Positions 21,151 through 40,068 of a stretch of DNA of 64,000 nucleotides are shown here, one piece after another; the first letter of the stretch is position 1; each line of letters opens with the position of its first letter. Origin of the DNA: Micavibrio sp. UBA1672 (GTDB lineage: Bacteria; Pseudomonadota; Alphaproteobacteria; Micavibrionales; Micavibrionaceae). Position numbers and translations under genes: made by a program. The stretch is from contig DCKO01000025.1 in assembly GCA_002320665.1 (NCBI GenBank), positions 21,482 to 85,481 on the forward strand, written 5' to 3'. Below the pieces are notes generated by a model that was not told the origin of the DNA, searched no databases, and worked only from the letters and a program-made list of their open reading frames with translations.

Positions 21151-21855
21151 TTAACCTTGTATGCGTATCAGCATGGCACATGCATCAGCCTGGCTGTCTT
21201 CATCATAGGCGCCAGCAGCACCACAAGCAGCACCACCATCACCACCAGCAGAACCCGTTGTTGGGTCGCCATCATCAACTTTGCGGTCAATACGAGCCGC
21301 TTCAAGAGGCTGAAGACCAACGCCATTACCAGTGTTAACTGTAGCTATTGATAAATAATGCCCTGCTCTTGGGTTGGCAAGCAAACCGATTGCAGCGCCA
21401 CCAGCAGTGTAACCAGGTACAAATTCATTACCATCAATATTTGTGTCCAGGAAGCTGTTTGCCGCATCAAGACCTGAAATCAGATCAGCCGCTTCAAGCT
21501 GTAAGAAAAATGCTATTGATTCTGCATCTGCAAGTGCGCCAGCATTAAGAGGTGCAGCTTCAAGACGCTGGTTACCATTTGAAGCTGGATTACAAACACC
21601 ATCATTACAATTTGTAATTCTGTTGTTGGCATTCTGCATATCGCCAGGGAAGGAATCATACATATCGCGGAATGTACCAACGGCCGCGTCAACAGCTTTA
21701 ATTTGTGCCACTGTAGATGTTACTTGTGTATTAGCGATCATCTCCTGACCTTTCAGGATACCACCAACAAGCAAACCAATAATAATCATAACAACCGCCA
21801 ATTCGACAAGCGTAAAGCCCTCATCATTGCGGATAGAGTCGTACTGAGTAGTCAT
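21151..21855 (-). CDS. Type IV pilin (prepilin with N-methylation site)
   Basis: MTTQYDSIRNDEG|FTLVELAVVMIIIGLLVGG is a class III signal with Glu+5. AGGAGA RBS before ATG 21855. There are two Cys pairs in the C-terminal half. I rejected the longer ORF start at 21939. Confidence 0.85.
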   Translation of the reverse strand: MTTQYDSIRNDEGFTLVELAVVMIIIGLLVGGILKGQEMIANTQVTSTVAQIKAVDAAVGTFRDMYDSFPGDMQNANNRITNCNDGVCNPASNGNQRLEAAPLNAGALADAESIAFFLQLEAADLISGLDAANSFLDTNIDGNEFVPGYTAGGAAIGLLANPRAGHYLSIATVNTGNGVGLQPLEAARIDRKVDDGDPTTGSAGGDGGAACGAAGAYDEDSQADACAMLIRIQG

Positions 21856-22039
21856 AGTATTCTCCTTTATAAGAATAGATAGAATTTTAATAGTTGTGTT
21901 TAAGTAAGAAGTAGTTAAAGAACGTGCTGGACAGCACAAAGCGAATCATACACATCTTTTTCCATTTCTAAAAGCCTCAATATGTTCAGAATGATTTATT
22001 TTGCTAAAAAAACATTTAAAAACAGAGGGGTAAGTTCTC

Positions 22040-22072
22040 AAAAAGACAAAATGATAAGTTTTTATTTTGTCT
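22040..22072 (-). terminator. Rho-independent terminator after the AraC-family gene
   Basis: Minus-strand AGACAAAAU / AUUUUGUCU forms a perfect 9-bp stem with an 11-nt loop, followed by UUUUU. It lies 37 nt after the stop at 22109. Confidence 0.65.
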
Positions 22073-22108
22073 AGAGCAACATTATGTATAAAATATAGAC
22101 GTTTTGAT

Positions 22109-23179
22109 CTAGCCAATCATATTTTTGCGGTATTCTCTGGGGCTGCGCCCTTCGATTTCTTTGAAAACACGGTTAAAGGATGGCAGAGAATTAAAGCCAA
22201 CTTCCTCTGAAATGACCTTAATACTGATATCAGTTTCCAAAAGCATTCTTTTTGCATCCTCAACTCGGTGTTCATTCAGGATCGTTGGAAAAGATTTCTT
22301 GAAATGGACATTAATAATCTTTGAAACAAGGCTTTCCGATAACTCTAATTCCTTGGCCAGATCTGATCTGGAGTAACCTGTTTCATGATAAATTTTTTCT
22401 AATGCCAATAAATCCTCGATCTTCTTGGCAACGTCCAGTTCTTTTTCACTTAAAATATCTGCACGTGGCTTAGCGTCCCTAAGGCTTAGAGATTGCGGAT
22501 AAATACGTAGTAGACTTGTATTAATAAGGTAAATAAAAGCCAGCCCCAAGACTGTGCGCAAGATAACGGAATTTTCCTGATATTGGCTATTACCTAGGCT
22601 CAGCATAAAAGATGCTAGCAGAAAAATATTAACGAAAACTAGCGAAAGGATCACCCAATATCTTTCATTTCCAGATTTCTGCCTGTTAATGAGTGTAAAT
22701 AAATCTCGCCTGAACCATATAATCAACAAGCTAAGAGCACCAGCAATCATACCTGTAATATTAAGCCAACCGGAAAAATCGTTACATTTATCAATATATT
22801 TGCAATATTCTACGGTTGTGCTCTTGGTAATGATGATCGAGGCCAGCAGAGCCAATGGCACGAATAGCAACACCCCCCACTCTGCCAGTTTTGGGTTACT
22901 CTTGGCATGAGCCATTTGTATTATAAGAAGGGCGCTAATTGATGGGCCATAGCTCCATAGCGCCCAGTTTATGATGCTATAATAAGGTATAGCCTCGGAA
23001 ATATAGCGCTCCGCTAGATCAGCAAAAAAGGCTGCGCCTAAAATAAAAAAATAAATACACGGCAAAAGTATTGAATTGATATTTTGTGCCCGAAATACGA
23101 TATAAACAAGGATATAGACACACTGAAATACTCCCAAAAGCGAGAGAACCTCCTGTAAATTGAACTGGAACTGGTTCAT
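22109..23179 (-). CDS. AraC-family transcriptional regulator with a polytopic membrane N-terminal domain
   Basis: The first ~230 aa form six to seven hydrophobic helices. The C-terminal ~100 aa are a typical AraC double HTH (SRSDLAKELELSESLVSKIINVHFKKSF...VGFNSLPSFNRVFKEIEGRSPREYR). Confidence 0.85.
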   Translation of the reverse strand: MNQFQFNLQEVLSLLGVFQCVYILVYIVFRAQNINSILLPCIYFFILGAAFFADLAERYISEAIPYYSIINWALWSYGPSISALLIIQMAHAKSNPKLAEWGVLLFVPLALLASIIITKSTTVEYCKYIDKCNDFSGWLNITGMIAGALSLLIIWFRRDLFTLINRQKSGNERYWVILSLVFVNIFLLASFMLSLGNSQYQENSVILRTVLGLAFIYLINTSLLRIYPQSLSLRDAKPRADILSEKELDVAKKIEDLLALEKIYHETGYSRSDLAKELELSESLVSKIINVHFKKSFPTILNEHRVEDAKRMLLETDISIKVISEEVGFNSLPSFNRVFKEIEGRSPREYRKNMIG

Positions 23180-23193
23180 TTTTTTAAATGCCC

Positions 23194-23940
23194 TTACTTG
23201 TATTTGGGTACATTATCACATAACGGGTCTTTTTGGGCTTCCTCTTCGGATAAAATCTGGTTGCATATATGTGCCAACATTTGATTTACCTCTTGGGGCT
23301 GTAATTTCTCTGCCGAGGATTTTAGAATTTCGACCATTACTGTATAGGCAAGCTCTTTGTCTCCCTTTTCCCGTAAAACAAAGGACGGTATTTGTTTTGT
23401 GAATATAGGGATATCTTCCTTTTTATGATTTGCCAATTCTTTTGCTAGCTCAAGGGCTGTCTCATGGTCTTTCATATTTTTTCGGGCGACAACAACGGCT
23501 TGTAGTAAAAATCGCCATTTTTCATCTTCAGTGCGCAAGCCTATTTCTCTAAGGTAGGATAAAACAGGACGAAACCTTTCCGGCTCTTGAAGAGAACTAA
23601 AATAATATGCAGCTAAATAAGGTATGTAATTAGAAGTAGAATCCAGATAATCTTCTACATAAAACCAGTCTGTCAAAGTCTCGTATTTATAATCTTTTAG
23701 CGCTGTTACGCGGCCACCACTATCGCCCATATTCTGGATCATGATCCCTATAATGCGGTAGGCGAATTGAGAATCGCCCAGACCATAAAGCGCGGCATAT
23801 TTCTTATTCGGCGCGGGTGGCACATTACTCCATTCTGCCTGAAGGTTTCTAGAATAGAGCCAAAAAACAACATTTATTATCAAAGCCATTGCAAAGATAT
23901 ATATGACTTTTTTTTCTGCTTTTTTAGAGGCGTTAAGCAT
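23194..23940 (-). CDS. Hypothetical membrane-anchored helical protein
   Basis: One N-terminal TM (IYIFAMALIINVVFWLY) followed by a ~210-aa predicted periplasmic alpha-helical domain. It is tightly packed between the ABC-2 permease and the AraC gene. Confidence 0.45.
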   Translation of the reverse strand: MLNASKKAEKKVIYIFAMALIINVVFWLYSRNLQAEWSNVPPAPNKKYAALYGLGDSQFAYRIIGIMIQNMGDSGGRVTALKDYKYETLTDWFYVEDYLDSTSNYIPYLAAYYFSSLQEPERFRPVLSYLREIGLRTEDEKWRFLLQAVVVARKNMKDHETALELAKELANHKKEDIPIFTKQIPSFVLREKGDKELAYTVMVEILKSSAEKLQPQEVNQMLAHICNQILSEEEAQKDPLCDNVPKYK

Positions 23941-23948: not shown

Positions 23949-24713
23949 CTAGAATTGCCGTCTAATAAAATCCAGTAGAACAGCATTGATGATAAGAAAA
24001 TAAAAGACAAGACATTGCCCGATTATAAAGTAAATGGCAAAAAGATCACTGCTATAACCGTAAATCAGCCAGTTATTCTGAGCCATTAAATCGAGGCGTG
24101 GTATAAGAATGGAGACCAGATTCATCATCATATCAAGGGCCACATGGCTTTCAACAAGCTTAGATTCTATAATCCCCAATATCTGCCCCATCATGCGCGC
24201 CAAAATATAGAAGGCTGACAAGGCCATAGCAGCATTGGAAGCACTCGACATATAAAGAGCAAAGAAAAAGGCTGTGTTAACCATGATTATACTTTCCACG
24301 GTTAAGCTTAGGCCCCAGACCCACGCCCCACCGAAATCTTGCCGCAAATAATTCATTCCACAAACAAGAGCCAAAACAGCAAGGCTTAGCATGATTGCTA
24401 TGATATTGAACGCCATAGAATATGACAAAACAAAGGATATCCGCCCTATTGGCCTTGAGAGCAAAAACTCGACATCTTTGCTGTCATATGATTTTCGTAC
24501 AAAAAATATGACAAAGAGGCAAAGTCCTAGCACCGCGGCAATTCGAAGGCTTCCAGCGATAAAAACAACAGCAAATATATCCTGCTCGATAATAGCCGAG
24601 CTGCCTAGAAATACAGAAAGACTGGTTCCAACGACTAGGACCAGAAATAAGGCCAGTACCAGTCGATCACGCAAAGCCGCTATTAGAACATATTTAATCA
24701 GTGATGGAGACAT
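23949..24713 (-). CDS. ABC-2-type transporter permease
   Basis: Six hydrophobic helices, and the E-F-LLSRPIGR-x-x-F-VLS motif after TM2 that is typical of ABC-2 permease families (E-x-LL-[ST]-x-P-[IV]-x-R). Confidence 0.6.
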   Translation of the reverse strand: MSPSLIKYVLIAALRDRLVLALFLVLVVGTSLSVFLGSSAIIEQDIFAVVFIAGSLRIAAVLGLCLFVIFFVRKSYDSKDVEFLLSRPIGRISFVLSYSMAFNIIAIMLSLAVLALVCGMNYLRQDFGGAWVWGLSLTVESIIMVNTAFFFALYMSSASNAAMALSAFYILARMMGQILGIIESKLVESHVALDMMMNLVSILIPRLDLMAQNNWLIYGYSSDLFAIYFIIGQCLVFYFLIINAVLLDFIRRQF

Positions 24714-24737: not shown

Positions 24738-26636
24738 TTATAGTTTAAACGGTCTGCGGTCGCCAGAGAACTTACGGTACAGATCCTTATCTGTCGCATG
24801 AATAGTATCAGCACCGTCCTCAATTATTGTAGCCTTTATAAAAATAACCAATTCTGTTTTTGAAATTAAGTCATTTTGTTTCTTAAACAAAGACCCGACA
24901 ATCGGCATCTCACCTAGAACAGGCACGCCTTCTTGTAAATTTGTGGTTCGGTCCTGCAACAAACCACCCATCACGATGGCTTGGCCAGAGGAAACATTAA
25001 CAACAGTATCGATTTCCTGCACATTAACCTCTGGTATTAATGATTCAAGGTTGGCCGCGCCAGGAATTGTAGAGGCTGCAAAGGCTACACCTGGGTCGCG
25101 TTCTGTGCCGACAACACGTGTGACTGTTGGACGCAATGCCAATGAAATTTTTCTAGTATCCAGATTGATAGAAGGCTGAACGTTCACAAGAACCCCTTCT
25201 GGAACACTATTAATCGTTGAGTCAATTTCGACCGTATCGATATCTCCATCATCATCTTTATCTGTTGATTCAACTTCAATTTCAAAGAAGACCTGATTGG
25301 TTGCAACATTCAAGACAGCAGATTGGTTGTTGAGCGTTGTTAAGCGGGGGCTTGCCAAAGCGCGTACTGTACCAAAACCGGAGATTGCTTGCACCAAGGC
25401 CTCCAGATCATTTCCCAGGTAGCCAAGAGTAAAGTTATTGGGATTTGTACCGGACAGAGAAGAGCCGATCGGCGCTGTTACCAGACCTCTTGTTAAACCT
25501 GACGCAGCGGTATTAAGAGATGTTGCACCACCACTAGACAGAAAGTTACCGAATCCCTCAGGGCCAAGGGATAGAGCCTGCCAATCAATCCCCGTGATAT
25601 ATTCATCAAACAGATTTACTTCGAAAATCTTGGCTTCGATCAACACCTGAGATGTCACTGCTTTCTTTAAAACTTCCAGATATGCCTGAACTTCTTTTTG
25701 TTGCTTTTCAGTTGCATAAATATTGACCATACCGGCCTGTTTGTTGATCGAGAACTGCGTTGAGGCCTCGCCATCCCCTGTGCTGCTACCGAAATCATCA
25801 TTACCGGCATCGACTGGCAAGGATTCCACATTCAAGACCACTTCGCGGTCATCTTGATTATTCGTACTTCCGTTTTCGGAATTAACAGGGTTCGAAGGAG
25901 CTGCAGTAATTCTCGGATCTCGGTTTGTCCGCAAAGCAGACCCTCTTGCGCCTCCTAATATCTGAGAAAGTCCAGCTTCCAATTCACCCCAAAAATCAGA
26001 ATTACTCTCAGAGCTAGCAGAAAATGATGACCCAGTGTCAGCACCATCTCCAGAAACCACAGAAACATTCGTGCTAACAGCACCCTGATTATTTCTTATG
26101 AAACTCAAATAATCGATTTTGTAAAGTTTATTGTAAGGTGTATCCAACTCTACACGTAAGAAGTCTTCTTCAAATTTATAGCGCAATCCAGCAATATCAG
26201 AAATTCGCTTGATAACGACATCAAAAGGCTTGTTTCTGGCAGTAAATATAATAGACCCCCTGATATTCGGGTCTAGTTCAAGATCGTAATCAGCTTGTTT
26301 TGCCAACTCAAATAATACGTCTCTAATCGGTACAGATTGGTCAACAGCAACAGAGACCAAAGGCATTGGCTGGATGCTGGAGGTTGCCGTCGAGACATAA
26401 GGCTGCATCTCGGGAATTCCTACTCTATTGGAAGTATCGCTTGATGGTGTTTCGAGTTCAGGTGTACGCTCTGCCAAGCCATCACGGTAATCTTGTATCT
26501 CCATATTTCCGGCTCTGTCTGCTCTGGTGTAATTATGCGCCAAATCACAAGCCGACAAGGAAAAACAAACCAATATTGCCGGAAATAGTCCGAAAGGTTT
26601 ACTGGTTGTGTTTTTCAACTTTTGTAAAACAAACAT
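24738..26636 (-). CDS. Secretin, MshL-type lipoprotein (T4P/T2SS secretin family)
   Basis: Lipobox VCFSLSAC. N0-like domain (VSVAVDQSVPIRDVLFELAKQADYDLELDPNIRG). C-terminal secretin core (VLIEAKIFEV..., PRLTTLNNQSAVLNV, GQAIVMGGLLQDR...GVPVLGEMPIVGSLFK). I took ATG 26636 as the start rather than 26690. Confidence 0.9.
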   Translation of the reverse strand: MFVLQKLKNTTSKPFGLFPAILVCFSLSACDLAHNYTRADRAGNMEIQDYRDGLAERTPELETPSSDTSNRVGIPEMQPYVSTATSSIQPMPLVSVAVDQSVPIRDVLFELAKQADYDLELDPNIRGSIIFTARNKPFDVVIKRISDIAGLRYKFEEDFLRVELDTPYNKLYKIDYLSFIRNNQGAVSTNVSVVSGDGADTGSSFSASSESNSDFWGELEAGLSQILGGARGSALRTNRDPRITAAPSNPVNSENGSTNNQDDREVVLNVESLPVDAGNDDFGSSTGDGEASTQFSINKQAGMVNIYATEKQQKEVQAYLEVLKKAVTSQVLIEAKIFEVNLFDEYITGIDWQALSLGPEGFGNFLSSGGATSLNTAASGLTRGLVTAPIGSSLSGTNPNNFTLGYLGNDLEALVQAISGFGTVRALASPRLTTLNNQSAVLNVATNQVFFEIEVESTDKDDDGDIDTVEIDSTINSVPEGVLVNVQPSINLDTRKISLALRPTVTRVVGTERDPGVAFAASTIPGAANLESLIPEVNVQEIDTVVNVSSGQAIVMGGLLQDRTTNLQEGVPVLGEMPIVGSLFKKQNDLISKTELVIFIKATIIEDGADTIHATDKDLYRKFSGDRRPFKL

Positions 26637-26841
26637 AATATACTTAGCCCCTAGGAAATTTGATAAAGACATATGAAAGAAACAGAACAATCAAGGCGGA
26701 CGCCCATCAAGATTCCAACATAACTATATTGCGCTGTATGGTATGAAATATCGACTAGTTTTGGCAATAAGCTTCTTATTAGCTGTGAATAACTTAGTGC
26801 TAATATGGGAATTATTTTTTGAACTACAGAGCAAATTTAGC

Positions 26842-28833
26842 TTATTCAATACCTGCCAAAGGCGGTTCCCACTTATCATTTGATGCAGTGGCCTGCCAAT
26901 TCAGAATCACATCACCACTATGCGGGAATCCTAAACGGTCATTGTAATGAGCTAGTATTGCATCTCTGGTATCTTTATCATCTGTATTTGATACTGTTTC
27001 AAAAAGACGTTCAGCCTCACTAATGTCATTACGCGTGGCCATTTTCTTAATATATGGGATACTATCTACGCCGGCAGACAGGTTTCTGAAACCGGCCCCT
27101 AATAAAAGTCCAGTATATTTCGTATGTGAAGCCATTTCACCGCAAATACTGACAGGGAGGTTTTGTTTATTAGCCGCCGTAGCTATGTCTTTTAATGTTT
27201 CCAGAACAGCCGGTTCCGTTGGGTCATAAGCTTCAAGGTTTTCATCACTATAGCGATCAGGACCAATAATTTTTGCAATAAGATCATTCGAGCCCACCGA
27301 AATAAAATCAGCATTTAGCTTTCCTCTTTTTAAGGCATGAACGCCAGCAACGGTTTCAATCATTGCACCTACAGGGATCTTGGTCTTTACACCTTGCTTT
27401 GAGCATTCTTCCTCAAGCATCTGTCTGACTGGATCAAGGTCTGCATTAGAATTAACCATAGGCACCATAAGTTTAATCTTGGGCTTACGCCCCTCATCTT
27501 CCATTTTTTTGGCTAATAGAGCTATGTCTTCAATAAGACGCTTTGTTAGTTTTTCTTGATCCTGAGCACGTTTTTCTTCATCTATATTACCGTTTTTATC
27601 AAGAACTGGATATTTATCTCCCGCCAGATCCGGTGTTCTGATTGTTGCTTCAATATCTCCACAATTCCTTAAGTTACACTCAATGATGTGGAAGTAATTA
27701 TGGTCATTTTGCTTAAACTTAGATGATTATGTTTCACTTTCTTTGTCATAGCGCATGTCTGCAGCAACTTCAGTTCGATACAGTCCAATACTAACAGGGT
27801 TAGTCTCTCTAATCATATGTGATTCAAAAGAAGCAGCATAATTAGCGTGTATATTGACTTTCTCTCCATCTCTGGTTTTAACAGATTTGGTTTTGGTAGA
27901 ATCCTTAGCTAGTGCCTGAAATTGTTCTTCCCGTTTATCAACTTCACCTTCATAACCTTTGATAACACTTTTATTTGGATGAAGTAAAACCATGTTTTCG
28001 GAGCCATCCATAACAATAGGATCACGGTTCTTGATATGCTTCATATCATCTTGCTTGAGCCTGCCATAAGGAATGCCCAAAGCATCAATAATAATAGCTG
28101 CATGGCTTTCTAAACTTCCTTCATCGACCAAAACACCACTAACCTTCTTTTCTCCGGTCTCGGAATCACAAAGAGCGGATACTGCACTTAAGGATATTGA
28201 AGGCATAATCAGTATATCACCTTTTTTAACATCATTGATTGCTGATAAGGTTTTATCCGGATGCAAATGGTGTTGCATCGTTGCTCTGTGTTGTTGCAGT
28301 TCTGTCGCTCTGGCCCTAAGGTACTCATCGCCCATAGCCATGAATGTTGAAATTTGTTCTTCATAGAAACCATCAAGTGCAACTTCTGCAGATTGCCCGC
28401 TTTTTATAAGTGTCTGAATTCCTTCTTTAAATGTATGATCACTAACCATTCGGACTTCAGCACCCAGCACCTCTTTTACAATATCCTGTATCTCTATCGG
28501 GGCATTTTCTGCATCACTCAGATAGTTTTCGTAGGTTGTGATCGCTCTCTTGTGCGCATCTTCAAAACGTGAGAGCTGTTCTTCTACAAAGCTCTTTTTT
28601 CTGGCTTCCTGTTGTTCTATCGGCAATAAGTTGAATTCTTCTTCAGTGCGTCCAAAAACTTTTTCATACTCTTCATCTGACGGCTTTATACGGCTGATAT
28701 CAACAATATAAGCCTCCCCCACAGCCATTTTCGGACTCGAGAAATAAGCCGGAACGACCTGTGCACCATGCTTGTCATCAAAATGAGCGGCCAGCTCTGT
28801 TTTTCCATCTTGAGGATCGTCTGTCATTATCAC
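26842..28833 (-). pseudogene. PEP-utilising enzyme (PTS Enzyme I/PtsI-like) interrupted by one in-frame TAA
   Basis: ORFs 27727..28833 and 26842..27504 share a frame, and the only interruption is TAA at 27727-27729. Motifs present: LESHAAIIIDALGIPYG (phospho-His), GLYRTE, IRTPDLAGDK (in the bridging segment), VGSNDL and ICGEMA. Confidence 0.75.
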
Positions 28834-28894: not shown

Positions 28895-30037
28895 TTACTC
28901 ACTGAAAGAAATACGGGATGTATCCACTGAATCCAACGCCCCGTGGCTTTCACGTGATTGTTTGACCAGATTTGCTTGCTGGATTTTTATTTTCATATCT
29001 GACGGCTTATCAGAATTTGAAATTGCCGATTCATCGGAAATCAGACCCTCTATATAAAGATTAAGTAAGGATTGATCGAATGTCATCATGCCCAGAGAGT
29101 TATTTTGCTCCATCACGTCATGGATTTTTCCGATCTCGCCTTTAAGGATCAAGTCACGGACAAAACCCTGATTCAGCAAAACTTCAATTGCCGGAGACAT
29201 GCCTCCTTCCAGATTTGGAAGCAATCTTTGCGAAATAATGGCCTTCAAATTCATGGAAAGATTCAATCTGATCTGGTTATGAAACTCCTCCGGGAACAGG
29301 TTTACAATACGCTCAATGGCCTGATAAGAGTTGTTCGTGTGGATCGTTGCCAAACATAAATGTCCGGTTTCCGAGATCGACAAGGCTTGCTCCATAACCT
29401 CACGATCACGTATCTCCCCGACCAGAATAACATCCGGTCTTTGACGCAGGGAATTTTTCATCGCGGTGGCAAAGCTTTCCGTATCAACACCCACTTCACG
29501 CTGTGTAACAACACAACCTTTATGCTCATGAAAAAATTCGATCGGGTCTTCAATTGTAATGATGTGGCCCTGACTGTTGCGGTTACGCTGATCGATCATA
29601 GCCGCCAGAGAAGTTGATTTACCAGAACCTGTCATACCTGTAACAAGAATCAATCCTCTTTTTTCCATAGAGAGTTGTTCAAGAATTTTAGGTAGTTTCA
29701 ATTCCTCAAAGCTTGGAATTTCCGATGTAATGCGGCGAATAACCAATGCAGGAAACTGACGCTGTTGCATAACATTGATACGAAATCGACCATGTTCTCC
29801 CATATCCAACGCTGTATTCAGCTCAAGATTAGCCTCGAAATCACGTTTTTGGCGGTTTGTCAGCATTGATGTCAGGATTTCATTAATATCATCCGGTGAT
29901 AGACTATATTCTGAAAGATTAACTAGACCGCTATCGCCACGCAAGGATGGTGGAAAACCCACTGTCAGGTATAAGTCACTGGCTTTGTGCTCATGCATAC
30001 TATTCAAGTATTGGAATATCTTAGGTGGTGTCGTCAA
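28895..30037 (-). CDS. pilU: PilT-family retraction ATPase, PilU-like
   Basis: ASDLYLTVGFPP, Walker A GMTGSGKSTSLAAMID, Asp/His boxes (IITIEDPIEF, VGEIRD, TGHLCLATIHTNN). It is the second of two tandem PilT paralogs and overlaps pilT by 4 nt. Confidence 0.85.
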   Translation of the reverse strand: MTTPPKIFQYLNSMHEHKASDLYLTVGFPPSLRGDSGLVNLSEYSLSPDDINEILTSMLTNRQKRDFEANLELNTALDMGEHGRFRINVMQQRQFPALVIRRITSEIPSFEELKLPKILEQLSMEKRGLILVTGMTGSGKSTSLAAMIDQRNRNSQGHIITIEDPIEFFHEHKGCVVTQREVGVDTESFATAMKNSLRQRPDVILVGEIRDREVMEQALSISETGHLCLATIHTNNSYQAIERIVNLFPEEFHNQIRLNLSMNLKAIISQRLLPNLEGGMSPAIEVLLNQGFVRDLILKGEIGKIHDVMEQNNSLGMMTFDQSLLNLYIEGLISDESAISNSDKPSDMKIKIQQANLVKQSRESHGALDSVDTSRISFSE

Positions 30038-32116: not shown

Positions 32117-32995
32117 CTATCTGATTTGTGCCAGACGCTCGAAAACAGCATCTCTTGGTATTGTGCGCCCCGAGCCATATAAAGTATCAACTTCAAGAGC
32201 TTCTTCGTAATATTTTATGGCGTTATCCGTATCACCATGTTGATCATAAATTATTGCCATATTGTAGATATGGTTGGCATTATGTGGCTCCATGCTAGAG
32301 GCCACGCCCAAATATCTAAGCGCTGAAGGGAAATCACCAGATTTTGAATAAGCGAATGCCAATTGAGAAACTATACCTACATTATCTGCATTATCCTGAT
32401 ATAGCTCTAGTAAACGTCTTTGCGCTACAGCTGGATAGCGCGTTGCAAGAAGCCCCAGCATATTTTGTTTTACATCAAGGTTATCTGGATCGAGCTTTGA
32501 AATTTTTTCATAAACTTTCATGGCTTCGTCAAAACGTCCAAGTTTTTGTAGGGATATTGCTTTTCCCATTAAAACACGACCATCATCACCAATTTTTCTT
32601 TCCAGCATTTCATACAAGTCCAGCGCAGAATCAAAGCGTCCTAAGGATATTGCACGTTCGGCAGCCACCAACTGAGAGCTTGTTGTACCAGCATCCTGAT
32701 CTCTGCGGACAACAACATAAGGTGCAGCGGGACGCTCCCGTGGGCTATACAGAACAGGTCCTTGGCTCCCCATCTCGCCTCTAGAGACATCATCCGAGTC
32801 ATAATATGTAGGCGAATCCATGGTTGGTTCACTTGCTGCAGTCGGGCCAGATATTGTATTCCCCTCAATTTGTGGGATTTCATCAAAGTCATCTGGCGGC
32901 ATATCCTGCGCGAAAGATGCTGATGTTACACTTGCGGACAACGCGAAAATGCACGCCGTAAAGACTAGTTTTTTGTATTTTATTGATAACGGCAT
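32117..32995 (-). CDS. Secreted TPR-repeat protein (PilF/MshN/Tgl-like candidate)
   Basis: Signal peptide MPLSIKYKKLVFTACIFALSASVTSASFAQ, followed by several TPR-like units (AISLGRFDSALDLYE, AISLQKLGRFDEAMKVYEK, AFAYSKSGDFPSALRYL, AIIYDQHGDTDNAIKYYEEAL). An alternative ATG at 33079 would overlap the ABC gene stop. Confidence 0.7.
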   Translation of the reverse strand: MPLSIKYKKLVFTACIFALSASVTSASFAQDMPPDDFDEIPQIEGNTISGPTAASEPTMDSPTYYDSDDVSRGEMGSQGPVLYSPRERPAAPYVVVRRDQDAGTTSSQLVAAERAISLGRFDSALDLYEMLERKIGDDGRVLMGKAISLQKLGRFDEAMKVYEKISKLDPDNLDVKQNMLGLLATRYPAVAQRRLLELYQDNADNVGIVSQLAFAYSKSGDFPSALRYLGVASSMEPHNANHIYNMAIIYDQHGDTDNAIKYYEEALEVDTLYGSGRTIPRDAVFERLAQIR

Positions 32996-33075
32996 ATTAG
33001 GCACACCCGAGAAATATGGACAGAAATATTGAAAGACAGAACGTCTTAGCAGAATCATATTGCATAAGGAGTATA

Positions 33076-33810
33076 TCATGCAGCGGCCTGCCCCTCAATA
33101 AAATCAAGGAAAGCATGCTCAAGATTTTTTGTGGATGTTTTTTTCTTCAGATTTTGTGGTGTCCCGACATATTGAATCCGGCCATTAAATAAGACTGCAA
33201 CACGGTCACAGATTTCATCCATATCCGCCAGAATATGAGAACTTAAAAATATCATTTTATCCTTATGCTTAACCTGCCCGATCATATCCTTCACTTTTGA
33301 TCTGGCCATTGGATCAAGGCCACTCATTGGTTCATCCAGAATCATAACATCACAATCAGTTAAGAGCGTACCCATAAGGCCTAGCTTTTGACGCATACCT
33401 TTGGAATAAGTGTTAACTTTACGCTTTAGAGCAGCTCTATCCAAGGCCAGCGCGTCTGCAGCATTATAGACTTCGTCTTCTGAAATGCTTTTTTTATACA
33501 GGCCGAGCGAGAATTTTATGAATTCCATACCCGTTAAAAACCATGGTGGTTCGAATTTTTCAGGTAAGTAAGCCATATTCTTTTTACTTGTGGCATTATC
33601 GCGTGCCTGATTATTAATCAGGATTTCACCTTCATCCTGATTTCTTAAGGATAAGATGCACTTGATTAAAGTGGTTTTTCCTGCACCGTTCAAACCAATC
33701 AGACCGAAGATTTCACCATGATTAATCTCCAGATTTACCTCTTCGATGACGGGCTTGTCAGTATATGTAACGGAAACATCTTTTATAGATAAAGCGACTG
33801 TTTTACTCAT
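33076..33810 (-). CDS. ABC transporter ATP-binding protein
   Basis: Walker A GLNGAGKTT, Q-loop, signature YSKGMRQKL, Walker B VMILDEPMSGLD, and H-loop SSHIL. Confidence 0.9.
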   Translation of the reverse strand: MSKTVALSIKDVSVTYTDKPVIEEVNLEINHGEIFGLIGLNGAGKTTLIKCILSLRNQDEGEILINNQARDNATSKKNMAYLPEKFEPPWFLTGMEFIKFSLGLYKKSISEDEVYNAADALALDRAALKRKVNTYSKGMRQKLGLMGTLLTDCDVMILDEPMSGLDPMARSKVKDMIGQVKHKDKMIFLSSHILADMDEICDRVAVLFNGRIQYVGTPQNLKKKTSTKNLEHAFLDFIEGQAAA

Positions 33811-33834: not shown

Positions 33835-34404
33835 TTATTCACCCATTAAAAAGATACGTTGATCCAAGTTAAACCGCTGGTTTGTCTTTAATTTGATTGG
33901 ATAAATAGTATTGGTAAATGCATCCAGCCATTTAAGTTCGATGTAATCCTTATATACAACCAGATCAAGAATTTCCTCGGGGATTGAATCTGGCTTTACA
34001 CGTTGATTATTAAGCCATATTGTCCAGTCTTTTTCTGTTTTGAAGGCGATACCCCCAAGTTTTATTTCCCGAATTCCCCTATTTGGTGTGAATTCATCTT
34101 CACTATTTAACTCTTGCTCGGTGGGCGCCTTTACAAAGCCTCTGCTTTCTTTCATTTCCTTGATGGATTGGTGTTGCCAGAATGTGAAGAACAACGATGG
34201 ATATGACTTGTTTTTAGCTGGTTTTGTTGGTGTTTTTGGTATTTCAGGCTGCTCATTTTCAACAGATTCAGGCGGAGGAGGCATCCCCTCAATCTTTATA
34301 ATATCTTCTTCTTGTGCATAAGTTTTAGGTATGCTTAGAGCTGTCAGGCTCGTGCACATAACACATAAAAAAGCAAAATATAAACTTGTCTGTTTTACCT
34401 TCAT
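33835..34404 (-). CDS. Hypothetical periplasmic protein (PilP/MshK-position candidate)
   Basis: Signal peptide, a Pro-rich linker (MPPPPESVENEQPEIPKTPTKP), then a small beta-rich C-terminal domain (IKLGGIAFKTEKDWTIWLNNQRV). The assignment rests on architecture and gene position only. Confidence 0.35.
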   Translation of the reverse strand: MKVKQTSLYFAFLCVMCTSLTALSIPKTYAQEEDIIKIEGMPPPPESVENEQPEIPKTPTKPAKNKSYPSLFFTFWQHQSIKEMKESRGFVKAPTEQELNSEDEFTPNRGIREIKLGGIAFKTEKDWTIWLNNQRVKPDSIPEEILDLVVYKDYIELKWLDAFTNTIYPIKLKTNQRFNLDQRIFLMGE

Positions 34405-35052
34405 TTATCTATTCCTTTGCTCGTCCCCTATAACCTGGGATTCCGGAATAATTGTACGCCAAGATAGCTTTACCTCACCCTTGACCAAAACAGGGCTAGA
34501 GCCTGCTGCGATAGCACGCAGTACTGCTGCACTGATATCGCGAGACCTTGTGACAGTGATCGCATCAACAGATAGATGTCCGGGCAAAGTTTGCTGCGCC
34601 AAATCAATATATTTATATATATCCGAGTCATCAAAGGCTTCTATTTCAATTTCAACAGGGCTGTACAAGATTTTGTGCTTCGCTTTTTGAGCTTCTTCAT
34701 TATTTTCAACCGTACCAGATTTTACGCTGACTACAGCTGATATGACGTTAGAGCTTTCTTGCACCTGATTGAAAATGGCTTTGGCCATACTCCGTTCCTG
34801 ATTGTTGAAAAACCCTTGCTCTTTCAACAAATCAAACTCGTTTTGTTGCTCGTCTAATTGTTCGAATTCTATTTTCAAACGATCAATATCAGATGTTAAA
34901 CCACTGACACTTCTTCTAAGTTTTGTTAAATCACGCTCCGACGATTCTTGCATAGGCACCATATATAGATATACGAGCGCTGCCATACTTGCATTTAAGA
35001 CAATAAGTATCAGCAATAGAATTATTCGTCTTGGCCCTATTATATTGATCAT
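34405..35052 (-). CDS. Hypothetical bitopic protein (PilO/GspM/MshJ-like architecture)
   Basis: Short cytoplasmic N-terminus, one TM (IILLLILIVLNASMAALVYLYMV), a coiled coil, then a ~100-aa periplasmic domain. It is translationally coupled on both sides (ATGA overlap upstream, TAA-ATG abutting downstream). Confidence 0.4.
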   Translation of the reverse strand: MINIIGPRRIILLLILIVLNASMAALVYLYMVPMQESSERDLTKLRRSVSGLTSDIDRLKIEFEQLDEQQNEFDLLKEQGFFNNQERSMAKAIFNQVQESSNVISAVVSVKSGTVENNEEAQKAKHKILYSPVEIEIEAFDDSDIYKYIDLAQQTLPGHLSVDAITVTRSRDISAAVLRAIAAGSSPVLVKGEVKLSWRTIIPESQVIGDEQRNR

Positions 35053-36644
35053 AGTTGCGGCCCCTCAATTGTAATTTCCGCGACATAGTCCTGCTGCTTG
35101 TTTTTCGTCCCTATTTGTCCGGTTTCAACAACGATCTCTTCGCTGTATTCATAATCTTCAAGGAACTTTGTAACTTTTACCGTATGGTCCTTTAGCAAAG
35201 TCTGTAGTTTTTCCTGTAATTTTCGGACCTCCATATTGCCCTTTAAAACATCGGCGTCACTTGGGAAGGTCATTTGCATAGTCGCGATATAATTGGGTGG
35301 TGCTTGTTGTTGCCCGCGACCAGACGTGAAACGTGACAAGAAATTCTCACCGCGCTTTACATTCATATTGTCGATACGCAGATCACGCCCCAAGCCTATA
35401 GAAATTTTCTGGACCAGATCCAGAATATTGACTTGCCTCTTTTCCAGTTTATCGTGAATAGTCAAAGAGCTTTGTATTAACTGAATATCAAAGCCCATAT
35501 CCTGTTTGCGTTTAACTTCTTGATTATACCGTAACTGAAGCGTTGACCGACGGTTTTCGTATTCTTCTATTTGTTCCCAGTTCTGGTTCAGATCATCAAA
35601 TTTATTCATTAAATCATAGGCCTGATACCCAGCACCTAACACCAGAAGAACCGAGACCAAGGTAGCAATTTGTCTGGGTTGGGAAACTTTATCAATTTCC
35701 TTAGCCTTTAGAGGAAGGATAAACTTGCTTTTACCGCCAGCCCAAGCAACATGAAGCACATCTGCATATTTAGGATCTTGCTGATAACCAAGCGGAATTT
35801 TAAGGTAATCGGCGGCTTCTTGCGCATTTATATGATGATAATTGCATGGCGTTTCGATCATATTTCCCAGCATCTCTCCTGTCTGGGAATCGGAAATAAA
35901 AATAACATCCAGCCCATCATCAGCATTAAAACCAAATCTGGAAAGGTAGCTCATAGTGGCTTTAAATTCCTGATGAACATCTTCTGATATTTGTACAGGA
36001 TCGTCCTCGTTATCAGATATTGGCGTCATACGTGTAAGAGCTAATTCACCGTTATTGATAACAACCTGACGTAAACCTCCGCCTTTATGCATACCGATAA
36101 AAATCTTCCATTTAGATTTCTTATGCCCTTTAGAATGGATTTTCTCGGAGAGTTTTTTAACCATGTCAGAGGATTCGATAGGCAAAAGACAAAAACCGGC
36201 GATCGGTGCTAAAGATTTATTTGTGGCGGCAAGAACCTTTTTAAAGTTTTCTGTCGCCGGAATAGCTGCAAAAATATACAGCCCCCCGGATTTTAGTTTC
36301 TTTTTTGTTTTTTTATCTTCCTTTAAGGGTAATGCTGCGCGTACAGGATAATTCTGGAAAGCCACCATAAGCTTACGTTTGATCACGTTTTGCTTATCCA
36401 TGATACTGACTTTGGGGATACGTTCCTTTCGATAATGTTGTTCGACCATGTCATTTAGAACAAGAACAGGCTTACCTTTACAGTCTCTGGATAAAATCTG
36501 AGCTACATTGTCGACAAAACCGTCAGCATCCCACGGAACAGTATCAATCAGACGCACGCCTTTGGAGCTGTTACTATATACAAATAGTGCTTCATCAGAA
36601 ACTAGTAGGACTGTTCTAGAAGGTGTCAAAAACGAAAGTGACAT
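35049..36644 (-). CDS. Hypothetical bitopic protein (GspL/MshI-like; PilM-PilN fusion architecture)
   Basis: 531 aa: a ~325-aa cytoplasmic domain, a single TM (IATLVSVLLVLGAGY, about residues 326-342), and a ~190-aa coiled-coil/periplasmic domain. It lies directly downstream of pilB-pilC. I saw no sequence motif; the call is from architecture only. Confidence 0.4.
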   Translation of the reverse strand: MSLSFLTPSRTVLLVSDEALFVYSNSSKGVRLIDTVPWDADGFVDNVAQILSRDCKGKPVLVLNDMVEQHYRKERIPKVSIMDKQNVIKRKLMVAFQNYPVRAALPLKEDKKTKKKLKSGGLYIFAAIPATENFKKVLAATNKSLAPIAGFCLLPIESSDMVKKLSEKIHSKGHKKSKWKIFIGMHKGGGLRQVVINNGELALTRMTPISDNEDDPVQISEDVHQEFKATMSYLSRFGFNADDGLDVIFISDSQTGEMLGNMIETPCNYHHINAQEAADYLKIPLGYQQDPKYADVLHVAWAGGKSKFILPLKAKEIDKVSQPRQIATLVSVLLVLGAGYQAYDLMNKFDDLNQNWEQIEEYENRRSTLQLRYNQEVKRKQDMGFDIQLIQSSLTIHDKLEKRQVNILDLVQKISIGLGRDLRIDNMNVKRGENFLSRFTSGRGQQQAPPNYIATMQMTFPSDADVLKGNMEVRKLQEKLQTLLKDHTVKVTKFLEDYEYSEEIVVETGQIGTKNKQQDYVAEITIEGPQL

Positions 36645-36687
36645 TGTTAAAAAAAAGCCTGTGAAAAAATACGAACTGTGTGTCTTT

Positions 36688-37887
36688 TTAGCCGATAGCT
36701 TCCATCATATTGCCAAGATTCATATAGATCGGACCAAGGGAGCCAGCTGCTATCCAAACAATCACGAGTGCCAGTATAACAGTTAATGTCGGTTGAATCA
36801 TCTCAATTAGCGCATCTATAGCTTCATCCACATCTTTTGTATAAAATTCGCAAATCTGAATCAAAACAGGCGTCAGATTTCCTGATTCTTCACCAATTTT
36901 TACCATTCTTGTTACCATATTTGGAAATTCGCCTGATGCTCTGAAAGCATCGGAGAGCGGACTACCGGACTTAACGTAATGCTCGACTCCTTCCATAGCA
37001 TCAATCAATGCTAAATTGGATACAGTTTGACGTGCGGATTTAAGGCCATTCAGCACATCAATACCACTTTCGAAAAGCGCTCCAAATGTCTGGGCATATC
37101 TGGCGATAGATATTTTACGGATTAGCGGCCCGATAACAGGCATATTCAAATACATAACATCCATTTTATAGGCAATTTCATCCGATAATCGTCTGATTAT
37201 CATTAGAAATGACATAATTAATATAGGCACAACTAAAACAATGATTGCTCCATATATAGGTAGCCCTAATATCTTGAATTGCGGCTCAACAAAGAAATCC
37301 GAAGTTGACATGAGCGCCGTTGTATACCAAGGCAGTTCAATACTCAGATATTTTAAAAATCCTACAACCTGTGGAACAACCATGGTCATCATGAAAACAA
37401 TGGTAAAGAGGACAACTACGGTTACGATTATCGGATAGCGTGTCGCCTTCTTGATTTTGGATTGCATGGCATCCAGCCATTTAAGGTATTTCTCTAATTG
37501 CAAATAAGAGGATGTCAGGTCACCAGTGTCCTCACCTGCTTTGATAATTGATATAAAAAGAGGTTTAAAAACTTTTGGATGTTTTGCTAAAGCTTCGGAT
37601 AGTGATGCGCCGTCGCGGACATCACGATGAATTTCACTCATCATATCACGCATCATATCATTTTCTGCGCCATCTCGAATATCTCCCAAAGCATCAAGCA
37701 AGGGTACACCTGCGCTTTGCATTTGTTCCATATGAATAAAGAACTGGATTAGATCTCTAAGCTTTACCTTTTGCAGCGTAATAGTGGGTAGCGAGCTTTT
37801 CTTTTTTGTCAAAGAAGCACATTGAATTAATTCAAGCCCTGCACTTTGAAGCTGATTATGTAAGTCAACTTCGTTCATCGCCGCCAA
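36688..37887 (-). CDS. pilC: Type IV pilus platform protein PilC/GspF family
   Basis: Two GspF repeats with three TM segments. The conserved N-terminal coding sequence continues upstream of TTG 37887 to a TAA at 37960-37962 with no ATG/GTG/TTG (see finding). Coordinates given are the canonical-start ORF. Confidence 0.85.
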   Translation of the reverse strand: MAAMNEVDLHNQLQSAGLELIQCASLTKKKSSLPTITLQKVKLRDLIQFFIHMEQMQSAGVPLLDALGDIRDGAENDMMRDMMSEIHRDVRDGASLSEALAKHPKVFKPLFISIIKAGEDTGDLTSSYLQLEKYLKWLDAMQSKIKKATRYPIIVTVVVLFTIVFMMTMVVPQVVGFLKYLSIELPWYTTALMSTSDFFVEPQFKILGLPIYGAIIVLVVPILIMSFLMIIRRLSDEIAYKMDVMYLNMPVIGPLIRKISIARYAQTFGALFESGIDVLNGLKSARQTVSNLALIDAMEGVEHYVKSGSPLSDAFRASGEFPNMVTRMVKIGEESGNLTPVLIQICEFYTKDVDEAIDALIEMIQPTLTVILALVIVWIAAGSLGPIYMNLGNMMEAIG

Positions 37888-37983
37888 TGTCCCGCGGACA
37901 GGACGACCCTTTACATTTATGGCTCTGTACTTATAGCGTTCTATAGCTTTAACTCCAATTTAGACAAAAGAAAAGACTGACCA

Positions 37984-40068
37984 TTATTTTGTCAGGTCGA
38001 CAACCCGACTTAGTGCACTGAGGCTTGTTACACCTTCAAGTACTTTAAGAATGCCATCGTCCTTCATACTTTTGAAGCCTTTTTTAATAGCAACGTCCCT
38101 TAATTTTGCTTTTGACTCATTTTTGGCAACAACTTCATCTAACTCACTATCAAAAAGAAGAATTTCTGCGATCGCCACGCGCCCCTTATACCCCTTGCCC
38201 ATGCAACTATCACAGCCCTTTTCCGAATGGGTGTAAATAGGCGGCAGGTTGGAACGGCCAACACCTATAATCTCGACTTCTTCATCTGTGGGTTTATGTT
38301 CAACCTTACAATCCTCACATAAGCGACGAGCCAAACGCTGGGCGAATACGGCGATAATGGCTCCTGCCAACATGCCGGGTTTCATGCCAAGGTCTAAAAG
38401 TCGCGGAATTGCACCAAAAGAATCATTGGTGTGAAGCGAGGTAAAAACCTGATGTCCTGTCATAGCCGCTTTCAGAGCCATTTCAGCAGTTGTTTTATCT
38501 CGAATCTCACCAATGAAGATAATATCGGGGTCTTGACGCAAAAGCGCTTTAATACCATCCGCAAACTCAAGCACGCCTTCACGAACATGTGTTTGACGAA
38601 TCATTGGCAAGGAATATTCAACTGGGTCTTCCAAAGTCTGGATATTGACCTGAACATCATTCACTTCGTTGAGCATAGAATAAAGCGTTGTTGTTTTACC
38701 ACTACCCGTCGGGCCAGTCACAATGATAATGCCCTCAGGTCTTGAATTAGCCTTATTAATTTTTTCTTTGTTTTCATCACTAAAGCCGAGACCTGATAAA
38801 GGCATAATACTTGCGCTTTTATCCAGAACACGAAGAACTATATTCTCGCCATTCACTGTTGGGAGTGAAGACACACGGAAATCCGCTTCACGGCCACCAA
38901 TATTAAGATTAAAACGTCCATCTTGCGGGCTGAGCTTATCCGCAATATTCATCTCGGACATAATTTTTAGCCTTTGGGAAATACCATTCCAATGCTGTTT
39001 ATGGAGAATTTGAGCTGTAAACAAGACACCGTCAAGGCGATAACGCAACCGTACAAAGTTTTCTTCAGGTTCAAAATGCAAGTCAGAAGCGCCTATTTTT
39101 ACGGCCTCAAAAACAAGTGCATTCACGAGACGAACGATCGGGTGAGAAAAAGCCTCTTTCTCACTTAGTGCAGCGACATCCTTTTGTTCCGTCCCCTCCT
39201 CTAGCTCCTGAAGAATATCTTTGATTGAGCTTGCGTAACCATATGATGCATCAATCGCATCCGATAATACAGCAGGCGTAGTCACCAAAGGTCTAACATG
39301 CATGTCTTTGCTGATGAAACGGCGTAGTGTATCAAGCGCTACAACATCATGGGGATCAGACATTGCCACATATAATCTATTATTATCGATCGAGACAGGT
39401 AAAACCTGATGTTTTACGGCGGTCGATTTATCCAAAAGCTCAAGTGCTTCGCTATCAACAATTGTATTTTTGGGGTCGAACAACCCATAGCCAGAGCTTT
39501 CAGCAAGGAAACCGATTAGGTCTGATTCTTCAATAAAACCTAACTCTACAAGAATTTCTCCAAGCATTTTTTTAGAGATTTTCTTTTCTTGCAAAGCTAC
39601 GTTTAGCTGGTCTTCGGTAATCAAGCCAGATGCGACCATCTGATCACCGATCCGGCCAGTATTTGCCTTTTTGCCATGCTGTTGTGCTTGAGCTTCCACC
39701 TCTGCTAAATGCTCTTCTTCATTTACCCCAAGCTCTTTTGTAGGAGGCTTCACTGAGCTAATTATCCCAGCTTCGGAAGATTCAACTTGTCCGGTGGGTG
39801 TTTCAATTTGTTCAGGAGCATTTTCCTGAATTGTAGATGATTCAGATGCCACCATATCAGGATTCATATCTAGCTGATCCATTCCAAAATCATCTGTACT
39901 ATTATGAGAAGTTTCTGCCTCTGATGTTTGCGTAGCTTCTAGCCCGTCTTCTACACTCACGTTAAAATCCACCTCTTCATCTTGATTGAATACAGGCGGT
40001 GTATCTTTCTTTTTTTCAGACAGCATTTCTTCTGTCTCTGGCGAAATATTAAGTTCTATATCGTCCAT
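37984..40068 (-). CDS. pilB: Type IV pilus assembly ATPase, PilB/MshE (GspE family), with tandem MshEN-type motifs
   Basis: Walker A GPTGSGKTTTLYSML, LEDPVEY, IGEIRD, TGHQVFTSLHTND, and a tetracysteine CEDC...CDSC motif. Residues 139-191 hold the tandem RLGxxLLxxGLI...L...L motifs. A 138-aa acidic extension sits at the N-terminus. Confidence 0.92.
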   Translation of the reverse strand: MDDIELNISPETEEMLSEKKKDTPPVFNQDEEVDFNVSVEDGLEATQTSEAETSHNSTDDFGMDQLDMNPDMVASESSTIQENAPEQIETPTGQVESSEAGIISSVKPPTKELGVNEEEHLAEVEAQAQQHGKKANTGRIGDQMVASGLITEDQLNVALQEKKISKKMLGEILVELGFIEESDLIGFLAESSGYGLFDPKNTIVDSEALELLDKSTAVKHQVLPVSIDNNRLYVAMSDPHDVVALDTLRRFISKDMHVRPLVTTPAVLSDAIDASYGYASSIKDILQELEEGTEQKDVAALSEKEAFSHPIVRLVNALVFEAVKIGASDLHFEPEENFVRLRYRLDGVLFTAQILHKQHWNGISQRLKIMSEMNIADKLSPQDGRFNLNIGGREADFRVSSLPTVNGENIVLRVLDKSASIMPLSGLGFSDENKEKINKANSRPEGIIIVTGPTGSGKTTTLYSMLNEVNDVQVNIQTLEDPVEYSLPMIRQTHVREGVLEFADGIKALLRQDPDIIFIGEIRDKTTAEMALKAAMTGHQVFTSLHTNDSFGAIPRLLDLGMKPGMLAGAIIAVFAQRLARRLCEDCKVEHKPTDEEVEIIGVGRSNLPPIYTHSEKGCDSCMGKGYKGRVAIAEILLFDSELDEVVAKNESKAKLRDVAIKKGFKSMKDDGILKVLEGVTSLSALSRVVDLTK

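Follow-up and report, generated by a model that had tools for sequence, protein, structure and literature searches.

The gene cluster at positions 21151-40068 of the 64-kb stretch of Micavibrio sp. UBA1672 DNA analyzed here (the window) appears to encode a complete, single-locus and probably retractile type IV pilus machine belonging to a divergent, experimentally uncharacterized lineage, a reading to which we attach a probability of about 75%. Type IV pili are a well-known kind of machine whose diversity is recognized; what is new, as judged by sequence models, is that this cluster fits no standard class. As the cluster is conserved gene for gene across the Micavibrio-like group, it represents a variant of a known machine rather than a new kind of system. 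The evidence comprises gene content, domain families, a modeled PilM fold, a secretin lipobox and synteny, complemented by expression values taken from the genome paper of the cultured relative M. aeruginosavorus ARL-13.

According to the list of open reading frames (ORFs), the coding sequences run unbroken on the minus strand from 40068 to 21151, with spacings from -4 (an overlap) to ~250 bp; all cluster genes described below lie on this strand. The G+C content is even over the cluster (0.38-0.44) and resembles that of the flanks. Protein families were called by Pfam and NCBIfam scans of the 17 cluster ORFs, which back most of the labels given by an initial annotation that had read the region as a one-strand pilus cluster. 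Its further claim of a complete type IV pilus at a single locus also holds, all core components of a type IV filament having been located. Five proteins (531, 215, 189, 254 and 248 amino acids, aa) returned no Pfam or NCBIfam match, and lowering the threshold to E ≤ 1 for the 531-, 215-, 189- and 248-aa proteins and their orthologues yielded nothing meaningful. Hidden Markov models (HMMs) of the five unassigned families, compared with the ORFs of reference loci for the type IVa pilus (T4aP), the mannose-sensitive hemagglutinin pilus (MSHA, or MSH class) and the type II secretion system (T2SS), gave no match better than E 0.1. A promoter and terminator scan found a number of sites no higher than in shuffled sequence.

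Components of the predicted pilus machine

The extension ATPase (37984-40068) belongs to the PilB/GspE/MshE superfamily (T2SSE 394 bits; MshEN 64 bits). An acidic low-complexity extension of ~135 aa (aa 1-135) precedes c-di-GMP (cyclic dimeric GMP)-binding tandem MshEN motifs at aa 139-190 (NF053729, 63 bits with a cut-off of 38), followed by an MshEN domain (aa 193-280) and a C-terminal CxxC...CxxC motif; orthologue lengths of 635-702 aa suggest that the extension varies in length. The protein scored 530 bits on the PilB model TIGR02538 (cut-off 676), 497 bits on the GspE model (cut-off 630), 408 bits on the TfpB model, also under its cut-off, and 45 bits on the TadA-type model TIGR03819 (cut-off 373). 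The nearest solved structures are those of T4aP PilF/PilB (436-405 bits) and then GspE (348 bits), and the matches span the MshEN region. The MshEN motifs, previously taken to point to MSHA, are therefore not specific to that class, as the best solved matches over this region are T4aP proteins. Identity to the PilB, GspE and MshE classes is alike, at 37-40%.

The position of this ATPase was evaluated in a neighbor-joining tree of 22 sequences (463 trimmed columns, 100 bootstraps, PilT and PilU as outgroup). The references, taken from annotated records, included two msh-type loci, PilB of Acinetobacter and Neisseria, several other PilB-like ATPases, and GspE of Comamonas, Pseudomonas and Skermanella. 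The Micavibrio-type sequences, together with distant homologues from high-GC contigs, form a clade of their own with 100% bootstrap support, outside both the MshE pair (100%) and the Neisseria/Acinetobacter PilB pair (100%); the three GspE-type sequences form no supported group (35%).

The inner-membrane platform protein of the PilC/GspF/MshG family (36688-37887; T2SSF 169 bits) scored best on the GspF model, at 273 bits (cut-off 424); its identity to reference proteins is 27-30%, whether these are MshG, GspF-like or PilC. The prepilin peptidase/N-methyltransferase PilD (31344-32099) has two domains (A24_N_bact 88 bits; Peptidase_A24 57 bits). The retraction ATPase PilT (30034-31206) exceeds the cut-off of TIGR01420 (476 bits; cut-off 319), carries the AVRNLIRE motif in its translation and matches PilT of P. 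aeruginosa (3JVU) with 423 bits over its full length, making it near-canonical. It is accompanied by a PilU-type paralogue (28895-30037), which scored 427 bits on the same model and is without the AIRNLIRE motif.

The 531-aa protein (35049-36644) is a predicted PilM-PilN fusion. In its AlphaFold2 model (predicted local distance difference test, pLDDT, 74.5), an actin-like cytoplasmic domain (aa ~10-310) is joined by a hydrophobic helix (aa ~320-345) to a coiled coil and a C-terminal alpha/beta domain. A Foldseek search of the PDB with this model placed PilM of P. aeruginosa and Thermus at the top (E ~5e-10, probability 1.0), followed by FtsA and then by the cytoplasmic domains of GspL/EpsL (E ~2e-6). 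The assignment follows from this ranking of PilM in first place and from a model architecture like that of GspL and MshI. The fused, GspL-like assembly protein described earlier is thus recognizable in the architecture of the model, with the qualification that PilM outranks GspL in structural similarity. Next come a bitopic 215-aa protein in the PilO/GspM position (34405-35052; transmembrane (TM) segment within aa 1-34, coiled coil and C-terminal domain) and a secreted 189-aa protein in the PilP/MshK position (33835-34404), with a signal peptide, a hydrophobic segment at aa 7-26 and a C-terminal ~80 aa that is conserved among orthologues. Because they always follow the fusion gene, these two proteins are read as PilO and PilP counterparts. 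Profile searches of both families against PDB sequences returned coiled-coil noise only, and a weak hhalign match between the 215-aa family and the periplasmic part of the 531-aa family (probability 8%, E 0.004) was not counted as evidence. Considering the PilM domain and the PilN-like part of the modeled fusion, a disguised pilMNOP set is predicted to be present. The initial annotation had recognized no canonical pilMNOPQ block, and at the family level there is indeed no PilMNOP match; an equivalent exists, however, in the form of the predicted fusion and the two small proteins.

The secretin (24738-26690, with a probable start at 26636; Pfam Secretin 116 bits) is a lipoprotein, in which the lipobox LSAC is followed by DLA; a lipobox-like L[SAGT][AG]C-D sequence is found in 18 of 20 orthologues. 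Among the secretin models, MshL (TIGR02519, 217 bits, cut-off 250) ranked above GspD (135 bits) and PilQ (TIGR02515, 94 bits, cut-off 284). Compared with solved structures, the protein matched GspD with 70 bits and PilQ with 43 bits, and blastp gave 137 and 109 bits for MshL and 101 and 82 bits for GspD. A periplasmic tetratricopeptide repeat (TPR) protein (32117-33079; multiple TPR families, hydrophobic segment at aa 38-57) scored 40 bits on PilW and 33 bits on Tgl, both far under the respective cut-offs; by analogy with PilW, Tgl, MshN and TadD, it is a possible accessory of secretin assembly.

The major pilin (21151-21858; N_methyl) most likely starts at the ATG at 21858. It comprises a 13-aa leader, the prepilin signature G-1/F+1/E+5 and a mature part of ~222 aa with a C-terminal Cys pair. 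Its orthologues share a leader of 13-15 aa ending in Gly, followed by FTLVELAIVM, and the Cys pair is conserved. The GspG model matched the N-terminal helix only (31 bits), and no match to solved pilins was obtained. With 13-15 aa (window, L087, L045, L060 and L015), the leaders exceed those usual for type IVa pilins and fall short of most type IVb leaders; the mature N-terminus nonetheless begins with a type IVa-like Phe. A six-frame prepilin scan of the whole window revealed one credible prepilin motif only, that of the pilin at 21151-21858. The earlier observation that a minor-pilin operon is missing thus stands for the window, and minor pilins are probably encoded elsewhere, as suggested by separate prepilin operons in ARL-13.

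Three further proteins are integrated in the cluster as firmly as the core genes: the positions of an ABC (ATP-binding cassette) ATPase and of the 254- and 248-aa proteins are as conserved as those of the core pilus genes. The ATP-binding subunit (33076-33810; ABC_tran 94 bits) is of the ABC-2 exporter (DrrA/GldA-like) type, with 155 bits on drrA and 143 bits on GldA, both under the cut-offs, and it bears out the embedded ABC transporter noted previously. The polytopic 254-aa protein (23949-24713), which always follows the secretin and contains several hydrophobic segments, is probably the ABC-2 permease that partners this ATPase, albeit a divergent one. The label was already given in the initial annotation and is weak: the window protein has no match of its own, and among its orthologues 4 of 23 match ABC2_membrane_2 (best E 1e-4) and 3 of 23 match ABC2_membrane_4. 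The 248-aa protein (23194-23940) is modeled by AlphaFold2 (pLDDT 89) as a membrane-anchored, all-helical protein consisting of a membrane helix and a TPR-like helical repeat. Foldseek retrieved generic TPR matches only (E ≥ 0.04), none of its 422 homologues is named or has a Pfam domain, and the motifs NVPPxP and QNxGDxGGR are conserved. Between this gene and the pilin lies an AraC-family regulator (22109-23179; HTH_18 71 bits at aa 274-352) with a predicted N-terminal domain of ~6 TM segments.

The one precedent found for such an arrangement comes from Myxococcus xanthus, whose pilus biogenesis requires PilG, PilH and PilI, proteins with a stated function in translocating the pilin; PilGHI are also present in the pil clusters of other Myxococcales, of Bdellovibrio and of Desulfuromonadales. 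The two arrangements resemble each other in placing an ABC ATPase, a permease and a third protein without known relatives inside a pil cluster. They differ in that the genes are split here, with the ATPase after the PilP-position gene and the permease and TPR-like protein after the secretin. The likeness would be functional, the genes of the window being assignable to the general ABC-2 exporter type.

Conservation in Micavibrio-like genomes and in strain ARL-13

To assess synteny, window proteins were compared by tblastn with 86 loci. The order glnII-ATPase-PilC-531-215-189-ABC-TPR-PilD-PilT-PilU-secretin-254-248 is kept, with a single exception, by the more than 50 Micavibrio-like loci that are long enough, with protein identities from ~40% to 85%; such recurrence in over 50 independent genomes means that the arrangement is not due to chance. 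In the exception, L045 (JAGLMC010000047.1), the TPR gene leads straight to the secretin, with no PilD, PilT or PilU where these genes normally lie. A complete relative of 2.35 Mb has AraC, pilin, SPFH (Band_7) and NfeD after the 248-aa gene, as in the window. AraC follows the TPR-like gene in most relatives and is missing in L016, L060 and L015, where the pilin comes directly after the 248-aa gene. The housekeeping backbone on which the cluster had been proposed to sit is thereby corroborated, the glnII flank being conserved and the SPFH flank recurring in the complete relative.

The distribution of the 531-aa protein was examined separately. It is encoded on contigs of marine metagenomes, among them samples of Tara Oceans and JGI, and its named homologues are labeled Alphaproteobacteria bacterium, Micavibrio sp. 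or Rhodospirillales. Its alignment against a one-genome-per-species collection yielded 138 matching stretches, nearly all in metagenome-assembled genomes (MAGs) labeled Micavibrio sp., Alphaproteobacteria bacterium or Pseudobdellovibrionaceae/Bdellovibrionales. The Bdellovibrio-type labels arise because NCBI taxonomy files Micavibrio under Bdellovibrionota/Pseudobdellovibrionaceae; a passage of PMC9933672 treats Micavibrionales as alphaproteobacterial. The window is accordingly attributed to a Micavibrio-like alphaproteobacterium of marine origin that has not been cultured. Single contigs with the cluster also occur in bins labeled Alcanivorax (L010) and Muriicola (L033), probably through mis-binning. 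A full-sensitivity profile search with the 531-aa family gave 1028 cluster representatives with E ≤ 0.001, of which 254 reached E ≤ 1e-30. Three distant relatives, L088, L089 and L090, are metagenome contigs of 60-66% G+C whose 531-aa homologues are 26-31% identical (tblastn). All three keep the order PilC-531-215(-189), and L088 also has an ABC ATPase after the PilP-position gene. The module formed by the ATPase, PilC, PilMN, putative PilO, putative PilP and ABC genes is thus also found on distant high-GC contigs. Protein P0372 of L089 has no close relative among 5.8 billion proteins; its nearest homologues are Micavibrio-type proteins with 27-30% identity.

The cluster has a counterpart in the cultured predator M. 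aeruginosavorus ARL-13, whose genes GMV_1530-1544 are listed with expression values in Additional file 4 of its genome paper. Judged by annotation and gene length, these are the same 15 genes in the same order: GMV_1530 (prepilin, 744 bp), GMV_1531 (AraC, 1071 bp, as in the window), GMV_1532 (hypothetical, 765 bp), GMV_1533 (membrane protein, 771 bp), GMV_1534 (secretin, 1881 bp), GMV_1535 (twitching-motility protein, 1095 bp), GMV_1536 (PilT, 1191 bp), GMV_1537 (leader peptidase, 825 bp), GMV_1538 (TPR, 1590 bp), GMV_1539 (ABC, 699 bp), GMV_1540 (hypothetical, 693 bp), GMV_1541 (hypothetical, 645 bp), GMV_1542 (hypothetical, 1767 bp), GMV_1543 (T2SS-F, 1221 bp) and GMV_1544 (T2/T4SS ATPase, 1929 bp). 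The TPR and PilMN genes are longer than those of the window, and the flanks differ: a carboxylesterase gene (GMV_1545) takes the place of glnII at the ATPase end, and leuB adjoins the pilin. In the published RNA-seq data, the expression index rises from attack to attachment phase from 34.5 to 196.5 for the pilin, which is among the most highly expressed genes, from 0.1 to 18.5 for the secretin and from 0.9 to 7.8 for PilT. The ARL-13 paper describes an incomplete T2SS without GspCGHK and "multiple dispersed pil genes", and counts GMV1530 among the highly expressed pili-related genes; GMV_1530-1544, public since 2011, are never treated there as one system. Further prepilin operons lie elsewhere in ARL-13 (GMV_212 and GMV_742-744), which makes it probable that the minor pilins are unlinked. 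The suggestion of an undescribed subtype therefore needs to be qualified: the cluster fits no standard class, but by annotation and length it matches genes already published for ARL-13.

One gene inside the cluster is not part of the machine. The Enzyme-I (PtsI)-like gene at 26842-28833 (PEP-utilisers_N, PEP-utilizers and PEP-utilizers_C spread over two ORFs) is a single reading frame cut by one in-frame TAA after '...KESET' (~27727-27729), which recurs in independent assemblies of the same organism. The phospho-His motif SHAAI and the CGEMAS active-site region are retained. The gene is not found in L103, whose 531-aa protein is 74% identical and where PilU directly adjoins the secretin, nor in any other related locus compared, nor in the ARL-13 gene list. 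The stop codon and the absence from relatives indicate a recent, lineage-specific and disrupted insertion, so that the gene must be removed from the cluster as initially annotated. A link between the pilus and phosphotransferase system (PTS) signaling through this gene was considered and rejected on account of the disruption of the gene and its restriction to this organism.

Outside the cluster, a thiamine pyrophosphate (TPP) riboswitch (RF00059, 63 bits, above the gathering score) was detected on the plus strand at 3615-3703, upstream of a 596-aa ORF (4085-5875); of all 2-kb segments of the window, the one with this ORF is the richest in G+C (0.51).

Class assignment and alternative explanations

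Profile-based placement assigned the components to no single standard class, and all equivalog models for the ATPase, PilC and the secretin scored under their cut-offs. With T4aP, the cluster has in common an ATPase that is PilB-type as judged by solved structures, PilC, PilD, PilT and PilU, a PilM-fold protein (as modeled), a pilin with G-1/F+1/E+5, and a probable multi-locus organization with minor pilins elsewhere, as in ARL-13. It differs from T4aP in the fusion of PilM with PilN, in PilO and PilP counterparts without detectable sequence similarity to known families, in a lipoprotein secretin that scores lowest on the PilQ model, in the 13-15-aa pilin leader, in a PilB score under the cut-off and in the concentration of nearly all genes in one locus. 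The canonical T4aP class does not accommodate the cluster because its alignment proteins and secretin fall outside the PilMNOP and PilQ families, while PilT and PilU belong and PilB does so loosely. The Tad/Flp class, characterized by a TadA/CpaF ATPase, TadB/C, RcpA and a Flp pilin, does not fit either: the ATPase scored 45 bits on the TadA-type model compared with 530 on PilB, and the pilin is not Flp-like. A published survey of type IV filaments lists 884 "generic" systems (PMC6668835); a search of its supplements for Micavibrio returned only an ambiguous "MIAE002 ... Tad_1" row.

The main competitor to a surface pilus is a T2SS or pseudopilus secretion machine that would export the hydrolases of the predator during feeding, an explanation that we regard as unlikely. 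It is the one nearest to the ARL-13 paper, which read these genes as a T2SS lacking GspCGHK, and the feeding phase of that strain brings a strong rise in secretin expression. Several components point in the same direction: the fused PilMN protein has a GspL architecture, the platform protein scores best on GspF, the secretin is nearer to solved GspD than to PilQ, and the N-terminus of the pilin matches GspG best, if weakly. Countering these similarities, PilT and PilU are located inside the cluster and conserved there, and Pfam and NCBIfam detected neither GspC nor the pseudopilins GspHIJK among the cluster proteins, the window holding a single prepilin motif. GspG is typically ~140 aa long, whereas the mature pilin described here has ~222 aa. 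The pilin is, moreover, among the most highly expressed ARL-13 genes, and the ATPase falls outside the sampled GspE sequences, though these form no supported clade (35% bootstrap). The T2SS class consequently fails owing to the retraction ATPases and to the lack of GspC and GspHIJK. Membership of the plain MSHA class, as in Vibrio cholerae, is more doubtful still. The secretin scores highest on the MshL model, but its 217 bits lie under the cut-off of 250; the best-matching place for both ATPase and secretin in Aeromonas caviae is an msh-type locus, but the ATPase falls outside the MshE clade with its 100% support. Both systems have a secretin that is a lipoprotein, a TPR protein and an ATPase with MshEN, and in both an MshI-like fusion precedes two small proteins, yet HMMs of the three alignment proteins found no match to MshI, MshJ or MshK in two MSH loci. 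The TXSScan MSH model includes MshM (an ExeA-like AAA ATPase) as mandatory, and MSH loci are without a prepilin peptidase (PMC6668835); here, Pfam and NCBIfam found no MshM-type protein among the 17 cluster ORFs, while PilD, PilT and PilU are inside the locus, an ABC transporter is present, and one pilin gene stands in place of an mshBACD-type operon. By the published definition, the MSH class thus does not fit, given the lack of MshM, the presence of the prepilin peptidase and the placement of the ATPase outside MshE.

A recent chimera, in which modules from T4aP, MSH, T2SS and Myxococcus-type systems would have been combined through horizontal transfer, could explain why components score best on models of different classes, and is close to the "mosaic" composition claimed in the initial annotation. 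The whole order is, however, conserved across an order-level group at 40-85% identity, the G+C content is even (0.38-0.44) and like that of the flanks, and the housekeeping flank (glnII, and SPFH in the complete relative) is conserved as well. The ATPase and PilC are equally far from all classes and near none, and with the ATPase in its own 100% clade this argues for one diverged lineage instead of a mosaic. The recent chimera, to which we gave very little credence, was rejected on these three grounds of conserved synteny, even G+C and equal distance to all classes. The sequence comparisons fit one old, diverged lineage from the part of the tree in which MSH and T2SS arise and T4aP forms a paraphyletic group, and the even G+C and the order-wide synteny agree with it. 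A question of function rather than descent is whether the machine serves mainly for DNA uptake, as a competence pilus. Many bacteria take up DNA by means of retractile T4aP-like pili with PilT, and a predator could profit from the DNA of its prey. This role nevertheless seems very improbable, since the cluster genes, to which the screen was limited within the window, include no ComEA, ComEC or DprA, and neither the expression data nor the cluster give any pointer to DNA uptake; a DNA-uptake role would still be compatible with adhesion.

Several observations weigh against the reading of the cluster as a complete and retractile pilus. Pili have been seen in no member of the lineage and a mutant exists in none. 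No minor pilins, PilY1-like adhesin, PilZ or PilSR were found adjoining the cluster, with the whole window scanned for prepilins and the cluster itself searched for PilY1, PilZ and PilSR. The AlphaFold2 model of the fusion protein is of only moderate confidence (pLDDT 74.5), position and topology are the sole basis for regarding the 215-aa protein as PilO-like and the 189-aa protein as PilP-like, and the neighbor-joining ATPase tree of 22 sequences has no supported deep node. The match to ARL-13 was established from annotation and gene lengths, not from sequence alignment. Finally, as regards the lifestyle of this marine organism, a passage of PMC9933672 proposes one Micavibrionales MAG to be photoheterotrophic.

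Proposed mechanism and biological significance

Under the reading of the cluster as a retractile type IV pilus, the prepilin encoded at 21151-21858 would be cleaved and N-methylated by PilD, and the PilB-like hexameric ATPase would polymerize the pilin on the PilC platform, its MshEN N-terminus making extension responsive to c-di-GMP. The predicted PilM-PilN fusion would anchor the motor and, together with the PilO- and PilP-position proteins, link the inner membrane to a self-piloting lipoprotein secretin, in whose assembly the periplasmic TPR protein probably assists. PilT and PilU would retract the fiber. Meanwhile, the ABC-2-type exporter and the membrane TPR-like protein may act as fixed accessories, functionally comparable to Myxococcus PilGHI, and expression of the pilin is probably under the control of the membrane-bound AraC regulator. 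Such a pilus would likely serve to adhere to surfaces or prey cells and to pull on them. Predatory members would most plausibly use it to capture prey and keep hold of it, which fits the induction of pilin and secretin in the attachment phase of ARL-13.

More tentatively, the cluster might define a class of its own among type IV filament machines, equal in rank to MSH or the type IVb pilus (T4bP), serving epibiotic predators as an organelle that seizes and holds prey under c-di-GMP control; we consider this possible rather than probable. Such a class would be defined by its own PilMN-fusion, PilO and PilP families, an obligatory ABC exporter with its TPR-like partner, and the self-piloting lipoprotein secretin.

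For the phylogeny of type IV filaments, the cluster contributes a clearly bounded lineage in an area between T4aP, MSH and T2SS where resolution is poor. With it come four families new to Pfam and NCBIfam, namely those of the PilMN fusion, of the proteins in the PilO and PilP positions and of the membrane TPR-like protein. An ABC transporter fixed in a pilus locus had a precedent in the Myxococcus-type pil clusters; the present lineage is the second to show one, and could help to explain the part that such transporters play in pilus biogenesis. For the attachment of Micavibrio and its many uncultured relatives from marine and fresh waters to their prey, the cluster provides a defined, conserved and expressed candidate of 15 genes.

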